A stretch of 64,000 bases of DNA from Candidatus Krumholzibacteriia bacterium (GTDB lineage: Bacteria > Krumholzibacteriota > Krumholzibacteriia > JAJRXK01), in assembly GCA_041484665.1 (NCBI GenBank), contig JBGPIA010000003.1, positions 224,001 through 288,000 on the forward strand, written 5' to 3'. Below, in pieces: positions 25,414-44,296 of the stretch; within the stretch, counting starts at the first letter, position 1; the number at the start of each line of letters is the position of its first letter. A program made the translations under genes and the position numbers. The notes under the pieces were generated by a model. The model made no database searches and was not told the DNA's origin. It saw only the letters and a list, made by a program, of their open reading frames with translations.

Positions 25414-27234
25414 CTACGAGCGACCTCCGCGCGGTGCTCCACGCTCAGCGGAGCTGCGTCCTGCGCCGCCATCGCGGCCGCCGCGATCCGCGGCTCCGTG
25501 GCGGGAGTCTCCACCGCCGCGGGGCGACGGAGCCTGGCGCGGCGCTGGCGCCGACCGCGGCGGAGGAGCCTGGGGAGCCGGCGCGCTCGACCGGGGCGGC
25601 GGAGCCACCTCCGGCGGGGGCGCCTGGCGCGGCGGCGGCGCGACTTGCTCACTGCGGCTGGGTCGCGGCGCCGGCGGGCCGGGCTCTGTACTCGCACCTC
25701 GCCCGCTGTCGTCCTGATCGCCTCGCGAGCGTGCGCCGGGCGCGGTCCCGTCGCGCGGCGGCGAAACGACCTTCCGCGGTGGACCGCCGCGGTCAGGCCC
25801 GCGCTCGCTGTTACGGATGACCGGGCGCGTCCAGCGGCGCGCGCCGGTGTCACGGCTCTCGCCCGAGCGCGGTTGCGGCGCGACCCGCGTCTCGCCGCCC
25901 GAGCGGTCCGTGCCGTCGTCTCCGTGGGCCGGCGACGGCAGGCTGCGAACGCTGCGCTCGCGGCGCACCACGGCGTCGGTGCGGACGCCGCCCCCGGTCT
26001 CGCGCGGCACCAGCGCCGTCGAGCGGTGCGGCGCCGGCAGCGGCGCTGTACGCTCCCGGTCCGGCAGTCGGCCGAGGCCGCGATCGGCGGGCGCGGTCAT
26101 GCGACCGCCGCCCCCGGCGCTTGCAACGCGCGCGCGCGCGATGCTGGGAGGCTCGCCGCCGCGGATGGCCTGCCTGCCGAAGCGCCGCTCGCTCGCCGGT
26201 CCGTCGACCGCGTACAGCGGCGCCGTCACCGCGGCGCCGTGCCGGTAGCGGACGAGGTAGTCACCGCGGTAGTACGGGCTATCGTTCCACGACCAGAGCG
26301 GGTAGGAGCGCACGTAGACGCCGCTCCCCGGCCAGCGGTAGCACACCGGGTAGTACCAGAAGTAGTACGGCCGGCACCCCACCAGATCCCAGTAGTAGAA
26401 CGGAGGATCGTAGAAGAGCGGGTAGTAGCCGTACCGTCCCCACCAGCCCGAGTACCAGCCCCAGTCGTAGTGAACCGACACCTGCGTGCAGGTGTCCACG
26501 TACGGGTGGACGGTGCGCCCGTCGTCACCGTGGCACTGGGAGCAAGCGTAGCGCGGGTAGTCGACCCGGCTGTCGACATACACGTGACTCCAGTCGGTAA
26601 CGATATAGTCGACGTCCTGCTCGAGGCCGGTGATGGCATAGTTCACGTCGTTCACGGCCAGGAACGGGTCCCCCGCGACTTTGTGTCGGTAGTGCTCCTG
26701 CTCATCGGGATCGAACGCGAAGTCGATCGCGAGGTTGCGCAGGTCGAATGGATAGCGGCTGGCGAGCGCCTCGACGTACTCGACACCCTTGCTGAGGCTG
26801 GCGTGCAGGCGATGCGTGGCGCCCGCGGGCGGCAGCGTGTAGGCGTGTCCGCCGTACACGAAGCCGTCGTTGTAGCGGGTGGCCGGCCAGAGCACCTCGG
26901 CCACGCCGTCTGCGTCAATGCGGTAGACGACGACGTAGGCGTCGGCATTGGTGCGGAAGTGGAAGCCAATGGCCTCCCCGCGCTGGTAGACTTCGTCCTC
27001 ACCCTTGTCGTGCCAGACCTGGATGCGCAGATCCCGGTCCGCGCCCGCCTCTGCCGTGCTCGCCTCGGCCTTGCTGGCCGCCGCCTTTGCGGTGTCCTGG
27101 TCGGCCGCGCGATCCTCCCCCTGCACCCAGAGGGCAGCCAGGTCCACGCGCGCAGTGTCCGCCCACGCGAGGGCCGGGACAAACGGGAGGACGGCGAGGA
27201 GGACGCCGATCGAAACGTGTAGCTTCGCGCTCAT
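25414..27234 (-). CDS. Secreted DUF4384-like protein with CxxCH motif, Trp/Tyr-rich segment and Pro/Arg-rich disordered tail
   Basis: Signal peptide; 'IQVWHDK...YQRGEAI.F.FRTNADAYVVVYRIDADG...LWP'; ACSQCHG; YDWGWYSGWW...; low-complexity C-terminus. Confidence 0.75.
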   Translation of the reverse strand: MSAKLHVSIGVLLAVLPFVPALAWADTARVDLAALWVQGEDRAADQDTAKAAASKAEASTAEAGADRDLRIQVWHDKGEDEVYQRGEAIGFHFRTNADAYVVVYRIDADGVAEVLWPATRYNDGFVYGGHAYTLPPAGATHRLHASLSKGVEYVEALASRYPFDLRNLAIDFAFDPDEQEHYRHKVAGDPFLAVNDVNYAITGLEQDVDYIVTDWSHVYVDSRVDYPRYACSQCHGDDGRTVHPYVDTCTQVSVHYDWGWYSGWWGRYGYYPLFYDPPFYYWDLVGCRPYYFWYYPVCYRWPGSGVYVRSYPLWSWNDSPYYRGDYLVRYRHGAAVTAPLYAVDGPASERRFGRQAIRGGEPPSIARARVASAGGGGRMTAPADRGLGRLPDRERTAPLPAPHRSTALVPRETGGGVRTDAVVRRERSVRSLPSPAHGDDGTDRSGGETRVAPQPRSGESRDTGARRWTRPVIRNSERGPDRGGPPRKVVSPPRDGTAPGARSRGDQDDSGRGASTEPGPPAPRPSRSEQVAPPPRQAPPPEVAPPPRSSAPAPQAPPPRSAPAPRQAPSPRGGGDSRHGAADRGGRDGGAGRSSAERGAPRGGRS

Positions 27235-28196
27235 CGCGACCCCTCCTCGGGTGTCGGCACGACCTTGCCTCCGCTTGGGACGGACAGCTCGATCAGGCCA
27301 GGCACCGGTTGATACGCCCAGTAGACGCCGACGTAGTCGGGAGTCCGCTCCACGACGGTGATCTTGGCGTAGTTGTGGTCTCCGGACAGAGCCGGGGATT
27401 GGAAGATCTTGATCGCGTACGTGTGGTCCACGACCGCTTCGACTTTGCCGGCGATGGACCAGCCGCTCGTGGGCGCCAGGCTCAGGTCGTCGAAGGAGGC
27501 CAGGCCGAAGTCCTGGATCTGCACGCGATCGGGATTTGCGTAAAAGTAGCCGACCCGCTGAGCGCCGACCAACTCGGAGCCGAACCACAGGTCGGTGCTC
27601 GACAGCGAGTAGAGCTGCGCCTGATCCGACAGGCTGCTGAAGTCGTAGCCTGAGAACTGCGCGTTCTGGAGGGACAGGGCCTGGTCGTAGAGCTTGAGCG
27701 CGCTCTGCACCTGCTCGGGGCGCGGCGTGTCCACGACGTAGTCCAAGCTCAGGCCGCTCTCGTTGTTGGTGTGGTCGAACGCGCTCACGGCGTAGTAGTA
27801 GTCCACCCCGTTGGTCAGCCCGGTGTCCGCGTACTCGACGAAATCATCGCCGGGCGCGCTGGTCGCGCCAGGCTGCAGGTGATCGATGGCCGTGATCTCG
27901 GCGATCATCGTGAATTTGCTGCTGCCGTCGGTGTTGCTGAAGATCCGGTAGCCAGCGAGGTCCGGCTCGCGGTCGGGGATCCAGCGCAAGTAGATCGCAT
28001 GGTCGCCTGTAATGCTGTGCACGCCGCCAGGTATGGCCGGTGGCGTCGCGTCCACGAAACCCTTCTCGTGATCGTTGCAGCCACCCAGGGTCGCGATCGC
28101 CAGCGCCCCGAGCGCGGCGGCGAGCGTCCGTGACCCGGCTGAGACTTTGAGCGTGGCTCTTCGCGAGCCAAAGACACTGCTGCTGTGCCTACGCAT
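27231..28196 (-). CDS. Lipoprotein with fibronectin type III domain
   Basis: Lipobox LGGC; 'PPAIP', 'LRW...EPDLAGYRIF', 'YADTGLTNGVDYYYAVSAFD...NES'; RBS gggaggagg. Confidence 0.85.
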   Translation of the reverse strand: MRRHSSSVFGSRRATLKVSAGSRTLAAALGALAIATLGGCNDHEKGFVDATPPAIPGGVHSITGDHAIYLRWIPDREPDLAGYRIFSNTDGSSKFTMIAEITAIDHLQPGATSAPGDDFVEYADTGLTNGVDYYYAVSAFDHTNNESGLSLDYVVDTPRPEQVQSALKLYDQALSLQNAQFSGYDFSSLSDQAQLYSLSSTDLWFGSELVGAQRVGYFYANPDRVQIQDFGLASFDDLSLAPTSGWSIAGKVEAVVDHTYAIKIFQSPALSGDHNYAKITVVERTPDYVGVYWAYQPVPGLIELSVPSGGKVVPTPEEGSR

Positions 28197-28256
28197 CGTG
28201 GACCTCCTCCCTGCAGGTCTCGTGACCTTCGGCCGACCACCCTGCTGGTGCACAAG

Positions 28257-28271
28257 GCACCGCCCGTGCCA
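28257..28271 (-). promoter_or_regulatory. Sigma54 (-24/-12) promoter of the Fn3-lipoprotein/DUF4384 operon
   Basis: TGGCACGGGCGGTGC (GG-N10-GC), 60 nt upstream of the ATG; IHF-like TTTCAACGAGTTG at 28333-28345. Confidence 0.65.
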
Positions 28272-28550
28272 GGCTGCGCCGCGCGGGAGACGGGGCGGGG
28301 CACCCTGGGTGCCAGACCCCCCACGCGATCCCCAACTCGTTGAAAAGAAGCGAATTGCCAGCACGCGGGGACTGGTGCTGGTGGCGGCGGCGCTGCGGCC
28401 GGGGCCCGGCTGTACGCGCCCCGCAGCCCCGTACGTGCCCCGCGGGGGACAGCCCCCTGTCCTCTGGCTGGGACAGCCGGGAGCGCGAGCCTGCGCAACC
28501 ATGGCCGGGGCGGCGGGGCGCTTCGGTGGTAGCGGTGCGCGGCCGGCCGC

Positions 28551-28584
28551 AGAAGCAAAGGGCCGCCCCGGAGGAGGCGGCCCT
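28551..28584 (-). terminator. Intrinsic terminator closing the putative ncRNA
   Basis: Minus-strand stem agggccgcctc-ctcc-ggggcggccct (11 bp, one G.U pair) followed by TTGCTTCT. Confidence 0.72.
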
Positions 28585-28935
28585 CGCACAAATGAGAGAG
28601 GGTGCGCAGTACCGGGAACCGCCCCAGTCGTGCCGCTCCTGGATCTCGCCATTCCAAGAGGGCGAAAGCGGCTCCTATGTTGGTGTCAGCGCACCCTTCT
28701 CGCCTGATGCGGAGGATTTCGAAGGATGGTCAGGAACGGATGCCTTCCTTCACTCCACCGCGCTCAACCCTGTGACCCCACCTCACAAGACAAGCGTGGT
28801 AGACCCAACTTGGAAGGGTCTCCTCATACAGCCGGTTAACCGAGAGGAGCCGCTCCCTTCCATCCTTCGAAACTCTCGAGCCCTCACGGGCTGCTTTGGA
28901 CGACCGGACCACGACTGCCAGTAGTGCCCGGCGCT
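28552..28935 (-). ncRNA. Putative novel ~380-nt structured sigma54-dependent non-coding RNA
   Basis: Lies between a -24/-12 promoter and a terminator; no credible ORF; multiple helices (28717-28729/28860-28872; 28599-28607/28689-28697; 28625-28632/28910-28917; 28820-28825/28844-28849; 28632-28637/28667-28672). Confidence 0.62.
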
Positions 28936-28945
28936 GGATCTCCAG

Positions 28946-28961
28946 TGCAGCCAACGTGCCA
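28946..28961 (-). promoter_or_regulatory. Sigma54 (-24/-12) promoter
   Basis: TGGCACGTTGGCTGCA versus consensus TGGCACG-N4-TTGCW (one mismatch); predicted +1 near 28935. Confidence 0.8.
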
Positions 28962-29062
28962 GGGAGGTCGTCCGCTAGCAGGTTCGTAAGTGCAATATGT
29001 TTCAACAAGTTCTGGAGGCGGACGCCGACCGGCGATCGTCTGCCGACGGGCGCCCCGGAGCG

Positions 29063-29152
29063 CTAGCAAACACCTTGATAGGGCGCTCATCGGGGGAACC
29101 AGGCAGCCCCTTGCTGCGGAAGGGGTTATCGGCCTAGCAAATGATTTGATAG
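29063..29152. promoter_or_regulatory. Pair of near-palindromic enhancer-like sites CTAGCAAA-N4-TTGATAG
   Basis: ctagcaaa-cacc-ttgatag (29063-29081) and ctagcaaa-tgat-ttgatag (29134-29152), 71 bp apart, about 140 and 210 bp upstream of the sigma54 start. Confidence 0.72.
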
Positions 29153-29164
29153 CGGGCGGTCGTG

Positions 29165-32100
29165 CTATGCCGGCGCGTGTAGACCGTAAAGCTTGATCTT
29201 CTGGAGCAGCGTGGGATAGCTGATGCACAGCCTTCGCGAGACCTCAGCGCGGTTCCAGCCGGTGATGGCGAGGGCCTCCGCCAGGACTCTACGTTCCAGT
29301 TCGGCCACCTGAGCGCGCAGCGGCAAGGGCCCGCCGGCTTCGCTGGACGCGCCGTCCTCCGCCTCGCTGCCGAGCGCGTCCTCGCGCAGCCGCGGCGGGA
29401 GGTGCACCATGCGCAGCTGCAGCTCGCCCGCGGCCAGGATCACCGTGCGCCTGATCGCCTTCTCCAGCTCACGCACATTGCCGGGCCACGCGTACGCGCG
29501 CAGGCACTCGGCGAAGCTGCGCGTCATCGTCGGCAGCGGGCGGCCGAGCTCGGCGCAGGTCTGCGCGATGAAGTGCTCGGCCAAGAGCAGCACGTCCTCC
29601 GGACGCTCGCGCAGTGGCGGCACGTGCACTGGGAAATCGAGCATGCGGTAGTACAGGTCCTCCAGGAATTCGTCGCGCTCGACCATCGCGCGGAGGTCCT
29701 GCTTGCTCGCGCACAGGATCCGCACGTCGACGGCCCGCTCGACCGTGCCACCGACCGGCCGCACCAGCTTGGTGTCGAGGAAGTGGAGGAGCTTGGCCTG
29801 CATCGGCAGGCTCATCTTTCCCACCTCGTCGAGGAACAGCGTACCGCGCTCGGTGCCCACGATCAGGCCCGGTTTGTCCCTGTCCGCTCCAGTGAACGCA
29901 CCGCGCACGTAGCCGAAGAGCTCGCTTTCCAGCAGCGTGTCCGGGATCGCTGCGCAGTTGACCGTGAGGAACGTGCGGTCGCGGCGCGCGCTGAGCTCGT
30001 GTACGGCGCGGGCGAACAGGCCCTTGCCGGTGCCCGTCTCGCCGGTGAACAGCACGGTGTACGGCGAGTCGGCCACCTTTGCGCAGAGCTCGAGAACTTC
30101 GAGGATCTTGTCGCTGTGGGTGAGGATGTCCTTGAAGGCCTCTTCGGAGCGGGGAGACGGCGCCGACGCCGCGGGAGCGTCCAGGGCCGTAGCGGTGTCC
30201 AGCAGCGCGGGCCGCAGCAGATTCACGTAGGTCGAGGCCACGGCCAGCGCCTCGGAGCTCAGCGGCTGCGGCTCCCCGGTGCGCTCAAAGTAGACGATCC
30301 CGCGCAGGCCTTCCCCGGCGCGCAGCGGGAAGGCCACGGCCACCGAGACCTCGCCGATGTCCACGCCCAGAGCCTCACGCCACGCGGGCTCTGCCTGCGG
30401 GCGCGTCCAGACGCGCGGCCCGTCACACGCCGCGCAGCTGGGGAGCTGGGACAGCACGTGGGCCGCGGTGCGCCGCGCGCGGGCGCGGGCCATGCGCGAC
30501 GCAGCCACCAGCTGCACGCGTCCTCCGGGTCCGCGCAGTGCCACCAGGCCGCGCTCGCCGCCCATACGCTCCATGACCGCCGAGAGCATGGCCGAGGCGC
30601 TCTGGGCCAGCCCTTCGCCTCCCTGCAGCAGCGGATCGCCCAGGTTGGCCAGCTCCTGGTAACGGGTAGTGGCGACGCGTGCATGGGAGGACATGGCCGC
30701 CTCGATGCGAGCGCGCAGCTCCTCGATGTCACCGGTGACGCCCTCGACGCCCAGGCAGCTCATGCGCTCCACCTCGAACAACGCGAGCAGCGCCTCGTCG
30801 TGGTTTCCCAGCTCGAGCTCCACGCGAGCCAGCGCGAGCTGCAACCGGCACGGCGCAGTGTCGGCGTCGGCGGCCGCCAGATCGACCGCTTCGCGCAACA
30901 ACCCGCGCGCCGCGAGCAGCTGCGTCCGCCCGCCGTGCTGCACGTGGAGATCCGCCAGCAACTCCAGCGTCACGCCGATCTCGACCGGCAGCCGGTAGGC
31001 GCGGAAGCGGTTGAGGGCCTCTTGCAGAGCGGAGCCCGCCTCCTCCACGCGCCCGCAGGCCAGCAGCGCCTGGCCGCGCACACGCTCGAGAAACCCCAGC
31101 TCGTACTGCTCGCCGCAACCGCGGCCCACCGCGGTTCCTGCGGCGGCCAACTGGGTGGCGGCCAGGGCATCGCCGCGCTGCAGGGCCAGTTGCGCCTGGC
31201 GCCGCAACACCTCGGCCAGCACGTCGTTTCCGCCGGAGATCTCGCGCGCGCGGGTCTCGGCGATGCCATAGTTGAGCTCCGCCTCGTCGAAGCGGCCCCG
31301 GGCCGCCATCAGATCGCCGAGGAACTCATCGGCCAGGGCGGTCTCGCGCAGCGAGCCATTACGCTCGGCGAGAACGCGCGCTTCGAGCAGATTGCGCTCC
31401 GCGTCGGCGAACTTGCCTTCCTCGATCTGGAGCTGCGCGTGGAGCAGGCGCAGCTTGGTGATCAGCCCCTGGTCGCCCAGGCTGCGCGCCATCTCACTGC
31501 CGCGCAGCACGCAAGCCAGCGCGTCGGCGCGCCGGCCCATCTTGCGGTAGAGCACCGCCTTGTTGAGGTGCAACGCGCCCAGCTCGTGCGCGGAGCCTAC
31601 CGCGCGCATCAGCTCCTCGGCCCGGTCGAAGAGCTGGATCGCGCGCGACCAGCGGCAGGCGTTCTTGGCCAGCAGCGCGAGGTTGCTCAACACCTGGGCC
31701 TGGCCGGTCACGTGCTCGATGCGCCGGTAGGTGGCCAGCGCGTCCTGGTAGAACTCCTCCGCCTTCTCGGCCCGGCCCAGGCGGAACCAGCAGCCCCCGA
31801 GAATGGTCTGGGCGTTGCCCACCTCGACGTGCGCATCGGTCGTCGCGAGTGTGGCGAACGCGTCGCGCGCAAGCTCGGCGGCTTCCTCGTAACGCGCCAT
31901 GCGGTAGAGCAGCAGGGCGCGACGCACCTGGACGGGGGCCTGCAGCTGTGGCGTGGAGCCGGCCAGCAGGTCCGCCGCAGCGTCGAGCTGCGCCGCGCAT
32001 TCCTCGAGGCGGCCCTGCTGCAGCAGGCAGTCAGCGAGCTTGCGGTGGAGCACGGCAAGGGGCTCCACGCTGATGCCAGCCGGTCCGGATTCCGGCACGA

Positions 32101-32269
32101 GGCCGCGCAGCGCAGCGCGGTAGTACTCGATCGCAGAGGAGTAAGCGGCAGCGCGATAGTGGAGGTCCCCGACCTCTTCCAGTCGGGGCGCACCGGAACC
32201 CTCGGGCTTACGCCTCGGCGTCTCCGGAGAGGACCACGGCCTCTCGTCTCCGTCACGGAACTCGTCCAT
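29165..32269 (-). CDS. Sigma54 enhancer-binding protein with N-terminal TPR array, GAF-like domain, AAA+ domain and Fis-type HTH
   Basis: About 550 aa of TPR-like helical repeats; GAF-like 'AFPLRAGEGLRGIVYFE'; 'GETGTGKG', 'ESELFGYVRGAFTGA', 'LFLDEVG', 'WPGNVRELE'; 'WNRAEVSRRLCISYPTL'. No receiver domain. Start taken at ATG 32269. Confidence 0.93.
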   Translation of the reverse strand: MDEFRDGDERPWSSPETPRRKPEGSGAPRLEEVGDLHYRAAAYSSAIEYYRAALRGLVPESGPAGISVEPLAVLHRKLADCLLQQGRLEECAAQLDAAADLLAGSTPQLQAPVQVRRALLLYRMARYEEAAELARDAFATLATTDAHVEVGNAQTILGGCWFRLGRAEKAEEFYQDALATYRRIEHVTGQAQVLSNLALLAKNACRWSRAIQLFDRAEELMRAVGSAHELGALHLNKAVLYRKMGRRADALACVLRGSEMARSLGDQGLITKLRLLHAQLQIEEGKFADAERNLLEARVLAERNGSLRETALADEFLGDLMAARGRFDEAELNYGIAETRAREISGGNDVLAEVLRRQAQLALQRGDALAATQLAAAGTAVGRGCGEQYELGFLERVRGQALLACGRVEEAGSALQEALNRFRAYRLPVEIGVTLELLADLHVQHGGRTQLLAARGLLREAVDLAAADADTAPCRLQLALARVELELGNHDEALLALFEVERMSCLGVEGVTGDIEELRARIEAAMSSHARVATTRYQELANLGDPLLQGGEGLAQSASAMLSAVMERMGGERGLVALRGPGGRVQLVAASRMARARARRTAAHVLSQLPSCAACDGPRVWTRPQAEPAWREALGVDIGEVSVAVAFPLRAGEGLRGIVYFERTGEPQPLSSEALAVASTYVNLLRPALLDTATALDAPAASAPSPRSEEAFKDILTHSDKILEVLELCAKVADSPYTVLFTGETGTGKGLFARAVHELSARRDRTFLTVNCAAIPDTLLESELFGYVRGAFTGADRDKPGLIVGTERGTLFLDEVGKMSLPMQAKLLHFLDTKLVRPVGGTVERAVDVRILCASKQDLRAMVERDEFLEDLYYRMLDFPVHVPPLRERPEDVLLLAEHFIAQTCAELGRPLPTMTRSFAECLRAYAWPGNVRELEKAIRRTVILAAGELQLRMVHLPPRLREDALGSEAEDGASSEAGGPLPLRAQVAELERRVLAEALAITGWNRAEVSRRLCISYPTLLQKIKLYGLHAPA

Positions 32270-32382
32270 CAGGCATCCCTTGGGCGAGAAGTTCTGACAA
32301 GGTTGCCGACATCGACCGGCTCGATCGTGCGCTGTGGCCGCGCAGCCCCCCACGACTGCGGGGAGCGCGAGGCCCCTTCCTC

Positions 32383-32727
32383 CTATCGGACGAGCAGCAA
32401 GGTGAAGCCGCGCTCGTACAGGAATCCCATCAGGCGGATGATCCGCGAGGGCGGCGGAAGCATCGCCGCGGTGGCGCGCACCGTCGGGCCCCTCACGTTG
32501 TTGCCACCCAGGATGTCATCGGGATCGCCATCCAGGCTCGAGCCGGGCCCAGGCCCGCCGGGATCCCCACCGGCCGGAGGCGTCCAGGAAGACAGGGTCG
32601 CGGTAGCGCCCGAGCCGGTACTGGGCGGGCGCACGCCCACCGACTTGGCCAGCGCAGCAGGCTGAGCCCACAGGCTCACGACGACCGCGAACGCCACGGC
32701 AAGGAGCAACGCGTGGCTGGTCTTCAT
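32383..32727 (-). CDS. Small secreted peptide/proprotein (114 aa) with GDPDD core
   Basis: RBS gaggag; Sec signal MKTSHALLLAVAFAVVVSLWAQPAALA; G/P/D-rich middle 'GGDPGGPGPGSSLDGDPDDILGG'; amphipathic basic C-terminus. Confidence 0.75.
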   Translation of the reverse strand: MKTSHALLLAVAFAVVVSLWAQPAALAKSVGVRPPSTGSGATATLSSWTPPAGGDPGGPGPGSSLDGDPDDILGGNNVRGPTVRATAAMLPPPSRIIRLMGFLYERGFTLLLVR

Positions 32728-32846
32728 CGTGATCCATCTCCTCAATCTCGGGTGGTTCCGGACCCGCGCGGGGACGCGCCCCGGATCCGTGGACCCGGAA
32801 CCGCTGGGTAGACCGTCCCCCGGGTGGGACGGTGGCTACGCCTAAA

Positions 32847-32876
32847 ACGATACGAACCCCACCCCTCCGCTGTCAA
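32847..32876 (-). promoter_or_regulatory. Sigma70 promoter of the peptide-bEBP pair
   Basis: TTGACA-N18-TATCGT. Confidence 0.6.
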
Positions 32877-32955: not shown

Positions 32956-34332
32956 CTAGCCCCCTTCGGAGGAGGTCCGCAACCCGTACTTCTGGATCTT
33001 CTTGTAGAGATTGCTGCGCTGCATCTGGATCTCGTCGGCCGTCCGGCTCACGTTGTAACCGAACTCGCGCAGCTTCTGCTGTAGGTAGGCGGCCTCGCTG
33101 GCCGCCTTGAATTCCTGGAAGGTCGGAGCAGCCAGGAACTCGGCCGCTCCGCGGTCGGCCTCGCGCCCTCCCAGCGCTGCTGGGAGATCGGACGCCGCGA
33201 TGGTGTCCGCAGCCACCACGATCGCCAGCCGCTCCGCCAGGTTGCGCAGCTCCCGGACGTTGCCCGGCCACGCGTAGCGGGCCAGGCGCTCGATCACGCC
33301 CGGGCCGATCTGCTTGGGCGGCTGCTTCATCTCGCGGGCAACCGCGTCGAGGAAGTGGGCGAACAGCGGCTCGATGTCGTCGACGCGCTCGCGCAGCGGC
33401 GGCAGGTGGATCTGGATCACGTTGAGGCGGAAGTAGAGGTCCTGGCGAAAGGCAAGGTTGGCGTCCTGCAGATCGCGATTGGTGGCGGCGATTACCCGCA
33501 CGTCCACGCTGACCTGGTCCTGCCCACCGACCCGCTCGAAGCGGCCGTCCTCCAGCGCCCGGAGCACCTTGGCCTGGGCCGCCACGCTCATGTCCCCGAC
33601 CTCGTCCAGGAAGAGGGTGCCACCATGGGCCCGCTCGAACTTGCCGCGGCGGCGCGCCAGCGCTCCCGTGAACGCGCCGCGCTCGTGGCCGAACAGCTCG
33701 CTCTCGATCAGCTCGTCGGGAATCGCCGCGCAGTTCACCTCCACGAAGGGCTGGTCGGCGCGCCGGCTGTGGGCGTGGATCGCCCGCGCCACCACCTCCT
33801 TGCCCGTGCCGTTCTCGCCGGTGATCAGCACCCGCGCCGGGGTGGGCGCCACCTTCTCCGCCAGCTCCCGGATGCGCCCGATGGCCGCGCTGCGGCCGAT
33901 CAGCTCGCCGCGCCGGCCGGTCTCCTCCGCCAGCTCGCGGTTGACGGTGCGCAAGCGTCCGTGCTCCACGGCGTTCTGGAGACGGACGAGCAGCTCCTCC
34001 TTCTTGAACGGCTTCTCGAGGAAGTCGTAGGCACCGCGCTTGATCGCCTCGACGGCGTTGGCCACGGCGTCGTGGCCGGAGATGACCACGGTGGGCACTT
34101 CGAGGCCCTCGGCCTTCAGGCCGGCCATGACCTCGAACCCGTCCATGCCGGGCATCTTGACGTCCAGCAGCAACGCGTCGATGCCGCCGCGCCGCAGCTG
34201 TTCGAGGGCGCTGGGCCCGTCCACCGCGTCGGCGACCTCGTAGCCCTCGTAACGCAGGATCGCGCCGACGCTCTGGCGGATCGCCGCCTCGTCGTCGGCG
34301 ATGAGCACGCGTGCCCGGGCCACGGCCGTCAC
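32956..34332 (-). CDS. NtrC/NtrX-family sigma54 response regulator (REC-AAA-HTH)
   Basis: 'LIADDE', 'LLDVKMPGMDG', 'DFLEKP', 'GENGTGKE', 'ESELFGHERGAFTGA'. Confidence 0.95.
   Translation of the reverse strand: MTAVARARVLIADDEAAIRQSVGAILRYEGYEVADAVDGPSALEQLRRGGIDALLLDVKMPGMDGFEVMAGLKAEGLEVPTVVISGHDAVANAVEAIKRGAYDFLEKPFKKEELLVRLQNAVEHGRLRTVNRELAEETGRRGELIGRSAAIGRIRELAEKVAPTPARVLITGENGTGKEVVARAIHAHSRRADQPFVEVNCAAIPDELIESELFGHERGAFTGALARRRGKFERAHGGTLFLDEVGDMSVAAQAKVLRALEDGRFERVGGQDQVSVDVRVIAATNRDLQDANLAFRQDLYFRLNVIQIHLPPLRERVDDIEPLFAHFLDAVAREMKQPPKQIGPGVIERLARYAWPGNVRELRNLAERLAIVVAADTIAASDLPAALGGREADRGAAEFLAAPTFQEFKAASEAAYLQQKLREFGYNVSRTADEIQMQRSNLYKKIQKYGLRTSSEGG

Positions 34333-42584: not shown

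Positions 42585-44296
<1,712 letters not shown>

Follow-up and report, generated by a model that had tools for sequence, protein, structure and literature searches.

The 64,000-nt stretch of DNA analysed here (the window) comes from a bacterium of Ca. Krumholzibacteriota and carries, on its minus strand, a candidate signalling circuit made of a gene for a presumably secreted propeptide, a σ54 enhancer-binding protein with tetratricopeptide repeats (TPR) and a structured non-coding RNA. The propeptide-activator operon is preceded by a σ70-type promoter (32847..32876; one found by scan, 0.4 expected), and a TTGAC-type hexamer lies 96-188 nt 5' of the propeptide gene in all 18 of the loci inspected for it. 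The propeptide gene (32383..32727, 114 amino acids, aa) is separated by 113 bp from the activator gene (29165..32269, 1034 aa), which is followed by two candidate enhancer sites, a palindromic 19-mer (29134..29152) and a second 19-mer (29063..29081), by a site resembling that of the integration host factor (IHF; 29000..29012), by a σ54 -24/-12 promoter (28946..28961) and by the RNA, of about 385 nt (28551..28935), its start being placed by the position of the promoter. This is the layout described in the sequence-only reading, an earlier interpretation of the same DNA, and each of these elements was found where that reading had put it. Its claimed terminator stands as a terminal hairpin seen in sequence and fold (28551..28585); the U-rich tail is short, and the terminator scan missed this hairpin. 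Taken together, this is a real, phylum-wide and apparently undescribed regulatory module with three unnamed parts.

Conservation was assessed over a main set of loci (L001-L120, plus L126, L131 and L146), a subset of the matches picked for family spread and flank length, in which L131, a near-duplicate of L013, is counted. Propeptide counts refer to the 121 loci where the activator is full-length and its upstream flank spans 520 nt or more, promoter counts to the 116 with at least 700 nt downstream, and RNA and enhancer counts to the 112 with a passable promoter. Of the 208 genomes available for the phylum, 199 carry the TPR region of the activator, as do 124 of the 125 high-quality ones, mostly as a single copy, and the activator tree, built from 43 locus proteins and five Eisenbacteria proteins, largely tracks the genome families. 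Full-length relatives with 26-33% identity belong to Ca. Eisenbacteria where they are named, and in distant full-length relatives, several of which bear the name Eisenbacteria, 10-15 of the 19 groove residues of the TPR are conserved. Eisenbacteria-type metagenome loci carry the propeptide, the activator, the enhancer pair, the σ54 promoter, the structured RNA and often a lipoprotein gene, so that the signal-peptide open reading frame (ORF) upstream and the σ54 promoter and RNA downstream, on whose recurrence the sequence-only reading had staked its proposal, are kept across the phylum and a sister lineage. The probable diderm host that it had supposed is borne out by the lineage and by 12 Omp85 matches in the genome. 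A weak relative from Thermoanaerobaculia (L146) has neither a propeptide nor a convincing promoter, and no copy of the circuit was found in viral contigs.

The propeptide consists of a signal peptide (residues 1-27), low-complexity linkers, a short motif and a C-terminal hydrophobic helix, and matches no Pfam or NCBIfam family. Signal peptides were judged by eye and by a hydropathy heuristic, and here the hydrophobic N-terminus ends in ALA. A signal-peptide-like ORF lies 5' of the activator at 119 of the 121 loci and the motif is found at 118, the exceptions being L112, L146 and L003, where the motif occurs in a different frame. In this locus the motif reads GDPDDILGGN (residues 67-76; 32500..32529) and is the predicted ligand; across the family, in propeptides of 91-120 aa (12 of 117 at or below 100 aa), its consensus GD[PA]D[DE]xxxG covers about ten residues amid diverged sequence, with ten-residue identity within families of 0.59-0.92 against 0.06-0.38 in flanking windows. 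The variants GDPDDAITGN and GDADDYANGR are each found in 10 genomes, across genera, and their codons differ in all ten for each; the motif is under protein-level selection. In most families the hydrophobic helix follows the motif; f4, f7 and f9 have it on the N-terminal side instead. The source genome holds no significant further copy of the motif, and look-alikes of the propeptide in the Atlas, with scores of 0.87-0.88, are a lead only. Family-5 solute-binding (peptide-binding) proteins occur in 81 of 81 genomes, which permits import. Apparent frameshifts in the propeptide genes of L003 and L112 and an internal TAG in the activator of L126 may be assembly errors or decay. Recoding at an in-frame TAG, flagged in some homologues, was discarded: three of these codons proved to be genuine stops and one an internal stop, and no recoding is claimed.

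The activator combines a TPR solenoid (residues 26-504), a GAF-like domain (552-697), an AAA+ domain (716-969) and a helix-turn-helix (HTH; 988-1027). Pfam calls the TPR, Sigma54_activat, AAA lid and HTH_8 families and no receiver domain, and the AAA+ domain is intact, with the GAFTGA loop and Walker motifs followed by the C-terminal HTH, as in a σ54 enhancer-binding protein; RpoN is encoded in the source genome. The GAF domain is not called by Pfam and appears as a GAF-like α/β domain in the AlphaFold model (mean predicted local distance difference test, pLDDT, 90.5), and JGI names for relatives include 'GAF, ATPase, Fis', so the TPR and GAF sensor without a receiver, as first read from the sequence, stands. 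None of the 25 NCBIfam models listed reaches its cut-off, the LuxO model giving 232 bits against a cut-off of 800. Polar residues on alternate TPR helices are near-invariant in 109 proteins and line a groove whose conserved residues include N236, K243, R308, E315, D349, E353, R356, R357 and E390.

The TPR part modelled alone (pLDDT 95.3) is nearest in fold to APPBP2, an APC/C subunit, MalT DT3, Rap, NprR and AimR. The best bacterial match is MalT DT3 (Z 26.3, root-mean-square deviation (rmsd) 4.0, 356 residues aligned), followed by Rap with its peptide (Z 24.6, rmsd 4.2, 339), NprR-NprX (Z 22.7, rmsd 5.7, 341) and AimR (Z 21.5, rmsd 4.5, 333). Foldseek returns only AAA+ matches for the full model and mainly generic eukaryotic solenoids for the TPR part, and there is no sequence match between the activator and the RRNPP structures. 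The modelled fold is thus of the peptide-binding type, and a fold alone assigns no function. Co-folding of the TPR (residues 24-535) with propeptide residues 54-88, in one job, gave 0.53 against 0.02 for the best of three controls, with contact agreement between runs of at least 69% and a partner pLDDT of about 50. The pair passes the mark, as do 116 of the 157 solved pairs and 2 of the 215 mismatched ones, yet the support is weak; among the passes, scores at or below 0.60 are shared by only 18 of the 157 solved pairs and by both mismatches; resemblance to solved RRNPP complexes could also contribute to the score.

Both 19-mers match the family consensus CTATAAA-N5-TTTATAG, the first with the second-best matrix score genome-wide. 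A pair with both sites scoring above 6 is present at 88 of the 112 loci against 4 of 448 coding controls; the spacing is 63-66 in 57 of these 88 and 71 in the present locus. The sites lie about 100-200 bp 5' of the -24/-12 promoter, as expected for σ54. Scoring was against the σ54 and IHF consensus motifs; a -24/-12 score of at least 17.5 is reached at 109 of 116 loci against 31 of 464 coding controls. The IHF-like site claimed from the sequence does have its match (29012-29000), but the enrichment is modest, with 35 of 112 loci within one mismatch against about 8 in shuffles. Two loci (L026, L097) show no σ54 promoter within 520 nt 3' of the activator, L026 having an apparent insertion of coding-like sequence.

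Starting at 28940, 396 nt fold at -210.8 kcal/mol (z = -6.7), none of 100 shuffles being as stable, and ten homologous RNAs fold at z = -1.7 to -8.5. Compensatory changes affect 37 of 79 and 26 of 29 predicted pairs. Three loops are fixed: ACCGGC (28831..28836), which is also present in Eisenbacteria-type RNAs, the apical loop AGGUGGGGU (28775..28783; GUGGGG loop or G-loop) and the apical GGCGAG loop (28643..28653), and the stems below the latter two covary. GUGGGG occurs 100-330 nt from the promoter at 109 of 112 loci against 38 of 1276 control windows. No small ORF is conserved across families, in agreement with the earlier view that the region holds no credible ORF. Rfam gives no match for this RNA or for 11 related loci, save one microRNA match below threshold, and neither blastn nor nhmmer finds another copy in the source genome. 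No Hfq was found in this genome, which is 94% complete, and the RNA is probably Hfq-independent.

The RNA is modular. In families f1-f3 (group A) it measures about 320-385 nt and contains the GGCGAG loop. In f4, f7, f9 and two f8 loci (group B) the GGCGAG hairpin belongs to a distinct RNA, about 100 nt long and preceded by a σ70-type promoter. This RNA is seen at 22 loci (L019, L023, L025 and 19 others) at 250-460 nt after the σ54 promoter; in f5, f6 and the remaining f8 no such hairpin is found nearby. This second RNA has near-invariant GGCGAG and C-rich, anti-Shine-Dalgarno-like loops, the latter partly complementary, by eye, to the G-loop of the σ54 RNA. Its C-rich 14-mer occurs in 31 of 43 f4 genomes and 7 of 8 f7 genomes, and 21 extra complements of the C-rich loop include no shared target, most of them lying in coding sequence.

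The GGCGAG loop is complementary to the translation-start region of the activator (32276..32291), where CUCGCC (32288-32283) adjoins the Shine-Dalgarno sequence. CTCGCC is found between propeptide and activator at 67 of 118 loci against 2.9 expected and, by way of background, at 43 of 2768 gene starts, crudely called, of the source genome. In f1-f3 the site lies at -14 to -21 from the start codon at 66 of 70 loci; in 50 of these 66 it sits in a hairpin loop, in 64 the Shine-Dalgarno sequence is paired, and the GGCGAG-CUCGCC duplex reaches -12.4 kcal/mol against -7.9 for shuffles. The four exceptions are L077 and L113, which have single-mismatch variants, L017, and the paralogue L079, which has no CUCGCC site, convincing promoter or G-loop. 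TCGCC occurs in 0 of 9 scored loci without the GGCGAG hairpin and in 8 of 24 in group B. Eisenbacteria-type RNAs have no GGCGAG hairpin (13 folded), and in 9 of the 9 start regions compared, which are closely related, the ACCGGCC loop finds its complement in the nucleotides that separate Shine-Dalgarno and AUG; because pairing there would block the ribosome, the feedback is read as negative. From this conserved complementarity between loop and start site, a Qrr-like feedback is predicted, and it is likely, on this evidence, that one RNA loop pairs with the translation-start hairpin of the activator, most probably repressing it. For the G-loop, pairing to the start of the activator message does not exceed that of shuffled sequences. 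A further 21 matches to CUCGCC-Shine-Dalgarno-AUG were dismissed as targets, being mostly coding coincidences.

Peptide and receptor have also been duplicated. Subfamily B, found with its query only in family f2, comprises activators of 825-860 aa in 40 of 53 f2 genomes, with up to three copies each. They have lost the N-terminal groove residues and kept, in the three proteins checked, the nine named above; their GAFTGA loops often deviate. Of 22 loci whose flank is long enough, 21 have a GDP-motif signal-peptide ORF 5' of the activator, while a σ54 promoter lies downstream in only 7 of 27 (L270-L302), with no fixed RNA. The propeptide is thus kept mostly without the σ54 promoter, and the joint occurrence of peptide and TPR therefore does not depend on the RNA. 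Among the paralogues, L035 and L079 each come with their own motif propeptide.

Related arrangements were seen elsewhere. Outside the window, on the minus strand of the source genome (G000:C4:35350-40527), a 1356-aa TPR σ54 activator with only 4 of the 19 groove residues belongs to a second module built along comparable lines. Next to it come a signal-peptide-like ORF of 122 aa, an enhancer-like pair and a -24/-12 promoter, and then a stretch of about 200 nt that closes with a terminator hairpin. A 2.6-kb contig (G000:C54:1-2570) has an Eisenbacteria-type copy, with the activator 3' end, enhancer, promoter, an RNA with a 5' G-loop hairpin and the lipoprotein, and may be a mis-binned contig or a paralogue. 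At L167 a partial activator is followed by a σ54-like promoter and, in place of the RNA, a secreted-looking Asp/Gly-rich repeat protein.

The model proposed here is a one-component peptide-signalling circuit in which an RRNPP-like input is joined to a LuxO/Qrr-like output with feedback, and as a whole it is considered somewhat more likely than not. As conservation shows, the σ70 operon codes for an apparently Sec-type propeptide together with a TPR-GAF-AAA+ activator of the cytoplasm. The propeptide would be exported and cut, releasing an acidic GD[PA]D[DE]xxxG piece that re-enters through an Opp/Dpp-type transporter; this export and re-import, rather than sensing of an unexported precursor, is fairly likely. 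That the motif piece binds the TPR groove and switches the activator, in either direction, is considered likely, and the co-fold model lends it weak support. The firmest step, very probable given the conservation of its sites, is that the activator on its enhancer pair, probably with IHF, opens the σ54 promoter of the multi-loop RNA. One loop of this RNA would then pair with the start hairpin of the activator message and most likely repress it, as Qrr does with luxO, and other loops would act on further targets. Peptide-receptor coupling and RNA feedback are therefore put forward as well-founded predictions.

Precedents exist for parts of this logic. RRNPP systems are defined by a propeptide of 10-100 aa, Sec export, maturation to a short receptor-binding peptide, a TPR receptor of 250-500 aa and adjacent genes, and such cytoplasmic receptors are described as a Firmicutes trait (PMC10075063). 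The present locus resembles Rap/Phr, NprR/NprX and PlcR/PapR in having a gene for a probable Sec-type propeptide directly beside that of a cytoplasmic TPR receptor, in a similar TPR fold and in the joint duplication of the pairs. It differs in the size of the receptor (1034 aa, with a TPR part of about 480 aa) and of the propeptide (114 aa), both beyond those ranges here, with 91-120 aa for propeptides across the family, in the GAF, AAA+ and C-terminal Fis-type HTH domains acting through σ54, and in its diderm hosts and core chromosomal locus; on size alone, the published RRNPP detector would miss this pair (PMC10075063). Arbitrium (AimR/AimP/aimX) likewise has a TPR receptor, a secreted peptide and an adjacent output gene, proposed as a non-coding RNA in many phages (10.1101/2023.04.27.537455; PMC6458997), but it is phage-borne, its receptor is not a σ54 activator and its output takes the form of an antisense RNA or a small ORF rather than a multi-loop covarying RNA.

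On the output side, LuxO is a σ54 activator that makes regulatory RNAs feeding back on its own message (PMC13501541, PMC2632942), and it differs in its receiver domain, which takes its input from membrane kinases, and in its need for Hfq, while the RNA here is larger and belongs to no Rfam family. The sequence-only reading had named the RRNPP-like input and the LuxO/Qrr-like RNA output, and the conserved propeptide, promoter and RNA across lineages support both; the likeness to LuxO/Qrr even goes further than it claimed, because an RNA loop is complementary to the ribosome-binding region of the activator itself. The circuit is nevertheless placed in neither class, because it departs from the sizes of RRNPP systems and from the receiver and Hfq of LuxO/Qrr. 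HetR, the cyanobacterial regulator, is not known to be either a TPR protein or a σ54 activator. The agr system employs a cyclic peptide, the membrane kinase AgrC and AgrA in a monoderm host, and the loops of its RNAIII are C-rich, as opposed to the G-rich loops found here. Nonetheless, RNAIII is a quorum-sensing effector in the form of a structured RNA, with loop-loop pairing and Shine-Dalgarno masking (PMC2837412), and PatX/HetR offers a diderm Sec propeptide with a short embedded motif, different from the present one, periplasmic cleavage and a cytoplasmic regulator, with no RNA output described in the accessible text (PMC12756182). In myxobacteria, a stem-loop RNA with a σ54 promoter, Pxr, lies directly 3' of the σ54 activator gene nla19 (pxrR), but its input is that of a response regulator, the RNA has 108 nt and no peptide is involved (PMC5568312). 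The combination, of which the sequence-only reading knew no described example, is apparently undescribed, but that reading had overlooked these partial precedents (AimR/AimP/aimX, agr/RNAIII, Nla19/Pxr and PatX/HetR); in the literature searched, mainly papers outside subscription, neither a TPR σ54 activator with a propeptide nor this RNA is described.

Several observations weigh against the peptide circuit. The motif is common to several genera and hence changes slowly, while Bacillus RRNPP peptides are diverse at the strain level, a faster change than that of the motif. The hydrophobic helix, which could tether the propeptide to the membrane, is kept in 115 of 117 propeptides, and neither a protease for processing nor a dedicated importer is linked to the locus. 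The TPR likeness has no discriminating power, its best bacterial match being MalT DT3, a sugar sensor. As for the feedback, the complementarity between RNA and message spans only 6-7 nt, and extended pairing is no better than in controls (the cognate arm beats the shuffled one in 28 of 68). The losses of site and loop amount, on a reading of the tree, to about four events, with key nodes at 0.73-0.74 support, and the start-region counts omit 17 loci without an assigned start codon, many of them loop-less. No target was found for the G-loop, whose 11-mer has no universal perfect complement. Finally, 16 of 24 group B loci have no site although the hairpin persists, and the hairpin therefore presumably has other targets too.

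Some of these points would suit a monitor of export or of the envelope internal to the cell, in which the TPR binds the motif on an unexported or membrane-tethered precursor and the RNA tunes envelope-protein synthesis, with no signal between cells. A core, mostly single-copy activator whose tree follows the families, a slowly changing motif, the retained helix and a lipoprotein-like neighbour with its own σ54 promoter all agree with it. Repeated duplication of peptide-receptor pairs, with up to three extra pairs per f2 genome and distinct motifs, suits several channels better, and PatX shows that in a diderm a propeptide can be exported, be cleaved in the periplasm and act on a cytoplasmic regulator (PMC12756182). 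This monitor is considered unlikely, if the best of the alternatives. It is more doubtful still that the TPR and GAF domains sense a metabolite or another protein, as MalT does, with the co-transcribed propeptide acting outside the cytoplasm on a different partner. The fold match to MalT DT3, the GAF-like domain and the weak pass in co-folding would fit, but receptor and propeptide have stayed together in independent duplications, even in the RNA-less subfamily (21 of 22); the L146 relative has no propeptide ORF, and the distant TPR activator on contig C4 keeps only 4 of 19 groove residues.

It is very improbable that the structured region is a cis leader serving the lipoprotein gene, a sponge for CsrA or an otherwise missing housekeeping RNA: the lipoprotein gene does come next at 94 of 113 loci, the source genome does encode CsrA (on which, see PMC13443453) and does have no Rfam 6S RNA, but the lipoprotein gene has its own promoter and is missing from f6 and most of f3 although these retain the RNA, CsrA was found in only 78 of 121 genomes and not in several with the full RNA, whose GGA triplets are almost all paired, and the genes for the signal recognition particle RNA, RNase P and tmRNA are located elsewhere. 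A sponge of the CsrB/RsmZ type was rejected in particular, for neither many loop GGA motifs nor co-occurrence with CsrA was found. The 6S RNA model (RF00013), which has no match in the source genome, also misses 9 of 14 control genomes, and the branched structure is unlike the single rod with a central bubble of 6S RNA. The csrA gene itself lies at G000:C2:62000-74000, in what is presumably a flagellar gene cluster, and was found in none of the f5, f7 and f8 genomes searched.

With the peptide circuit still preferred, the chances lie slightly in favour of a new class of diderm peptide signalling, in which TPR-gated σ54 activators read a processed acidic peptide directly, core in Krumholzibacteriota and also present in Eisenbacteria, with several peptide-receptor channels and a Hfq-independent multi-loop RNA under loop-loop self-control, with different loops in each lineage. 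A conserved TPR peptide receptor wired to σ54 in diderms would, if true, be a new type of input for enhancer-binding proteins, and the RNA a new family of structured regulatory RNA. Because ligand, groove, enhancer, promoter, seed and target all have coordinates, tests in E. coli are feasible with no need to culture the native host, and the circuit could yield an orthogonal peptide-inducible switch.

Beyond the RNA, also on the minus strand, a second σ54 promoter (28256..28271) precedes a 321-aa lipoprotein-like gene (27231..28196), a usual and not obligatory neighbour whose product belongs to no Pfam or NCBIfam family. Its homologue is present at 94 of 113 loci, f6 and most of f3 being among those without, and the second σ54 site, with a score of at least 18.5, at 97 of 113. 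An inverted repeat (28447-28462) and an IHF-like site (28333-28345) stand before this promoter, and GTCCCC/GGGAC elements like the repeat recur in homologues, which suggests an enhancer serving a different activator, for which the NtrX-like regulator encoded at 32956-34332 is a candidate. Elsewhere in the window, a tRNA-Met (42585-42661) is the sole Rfam match.

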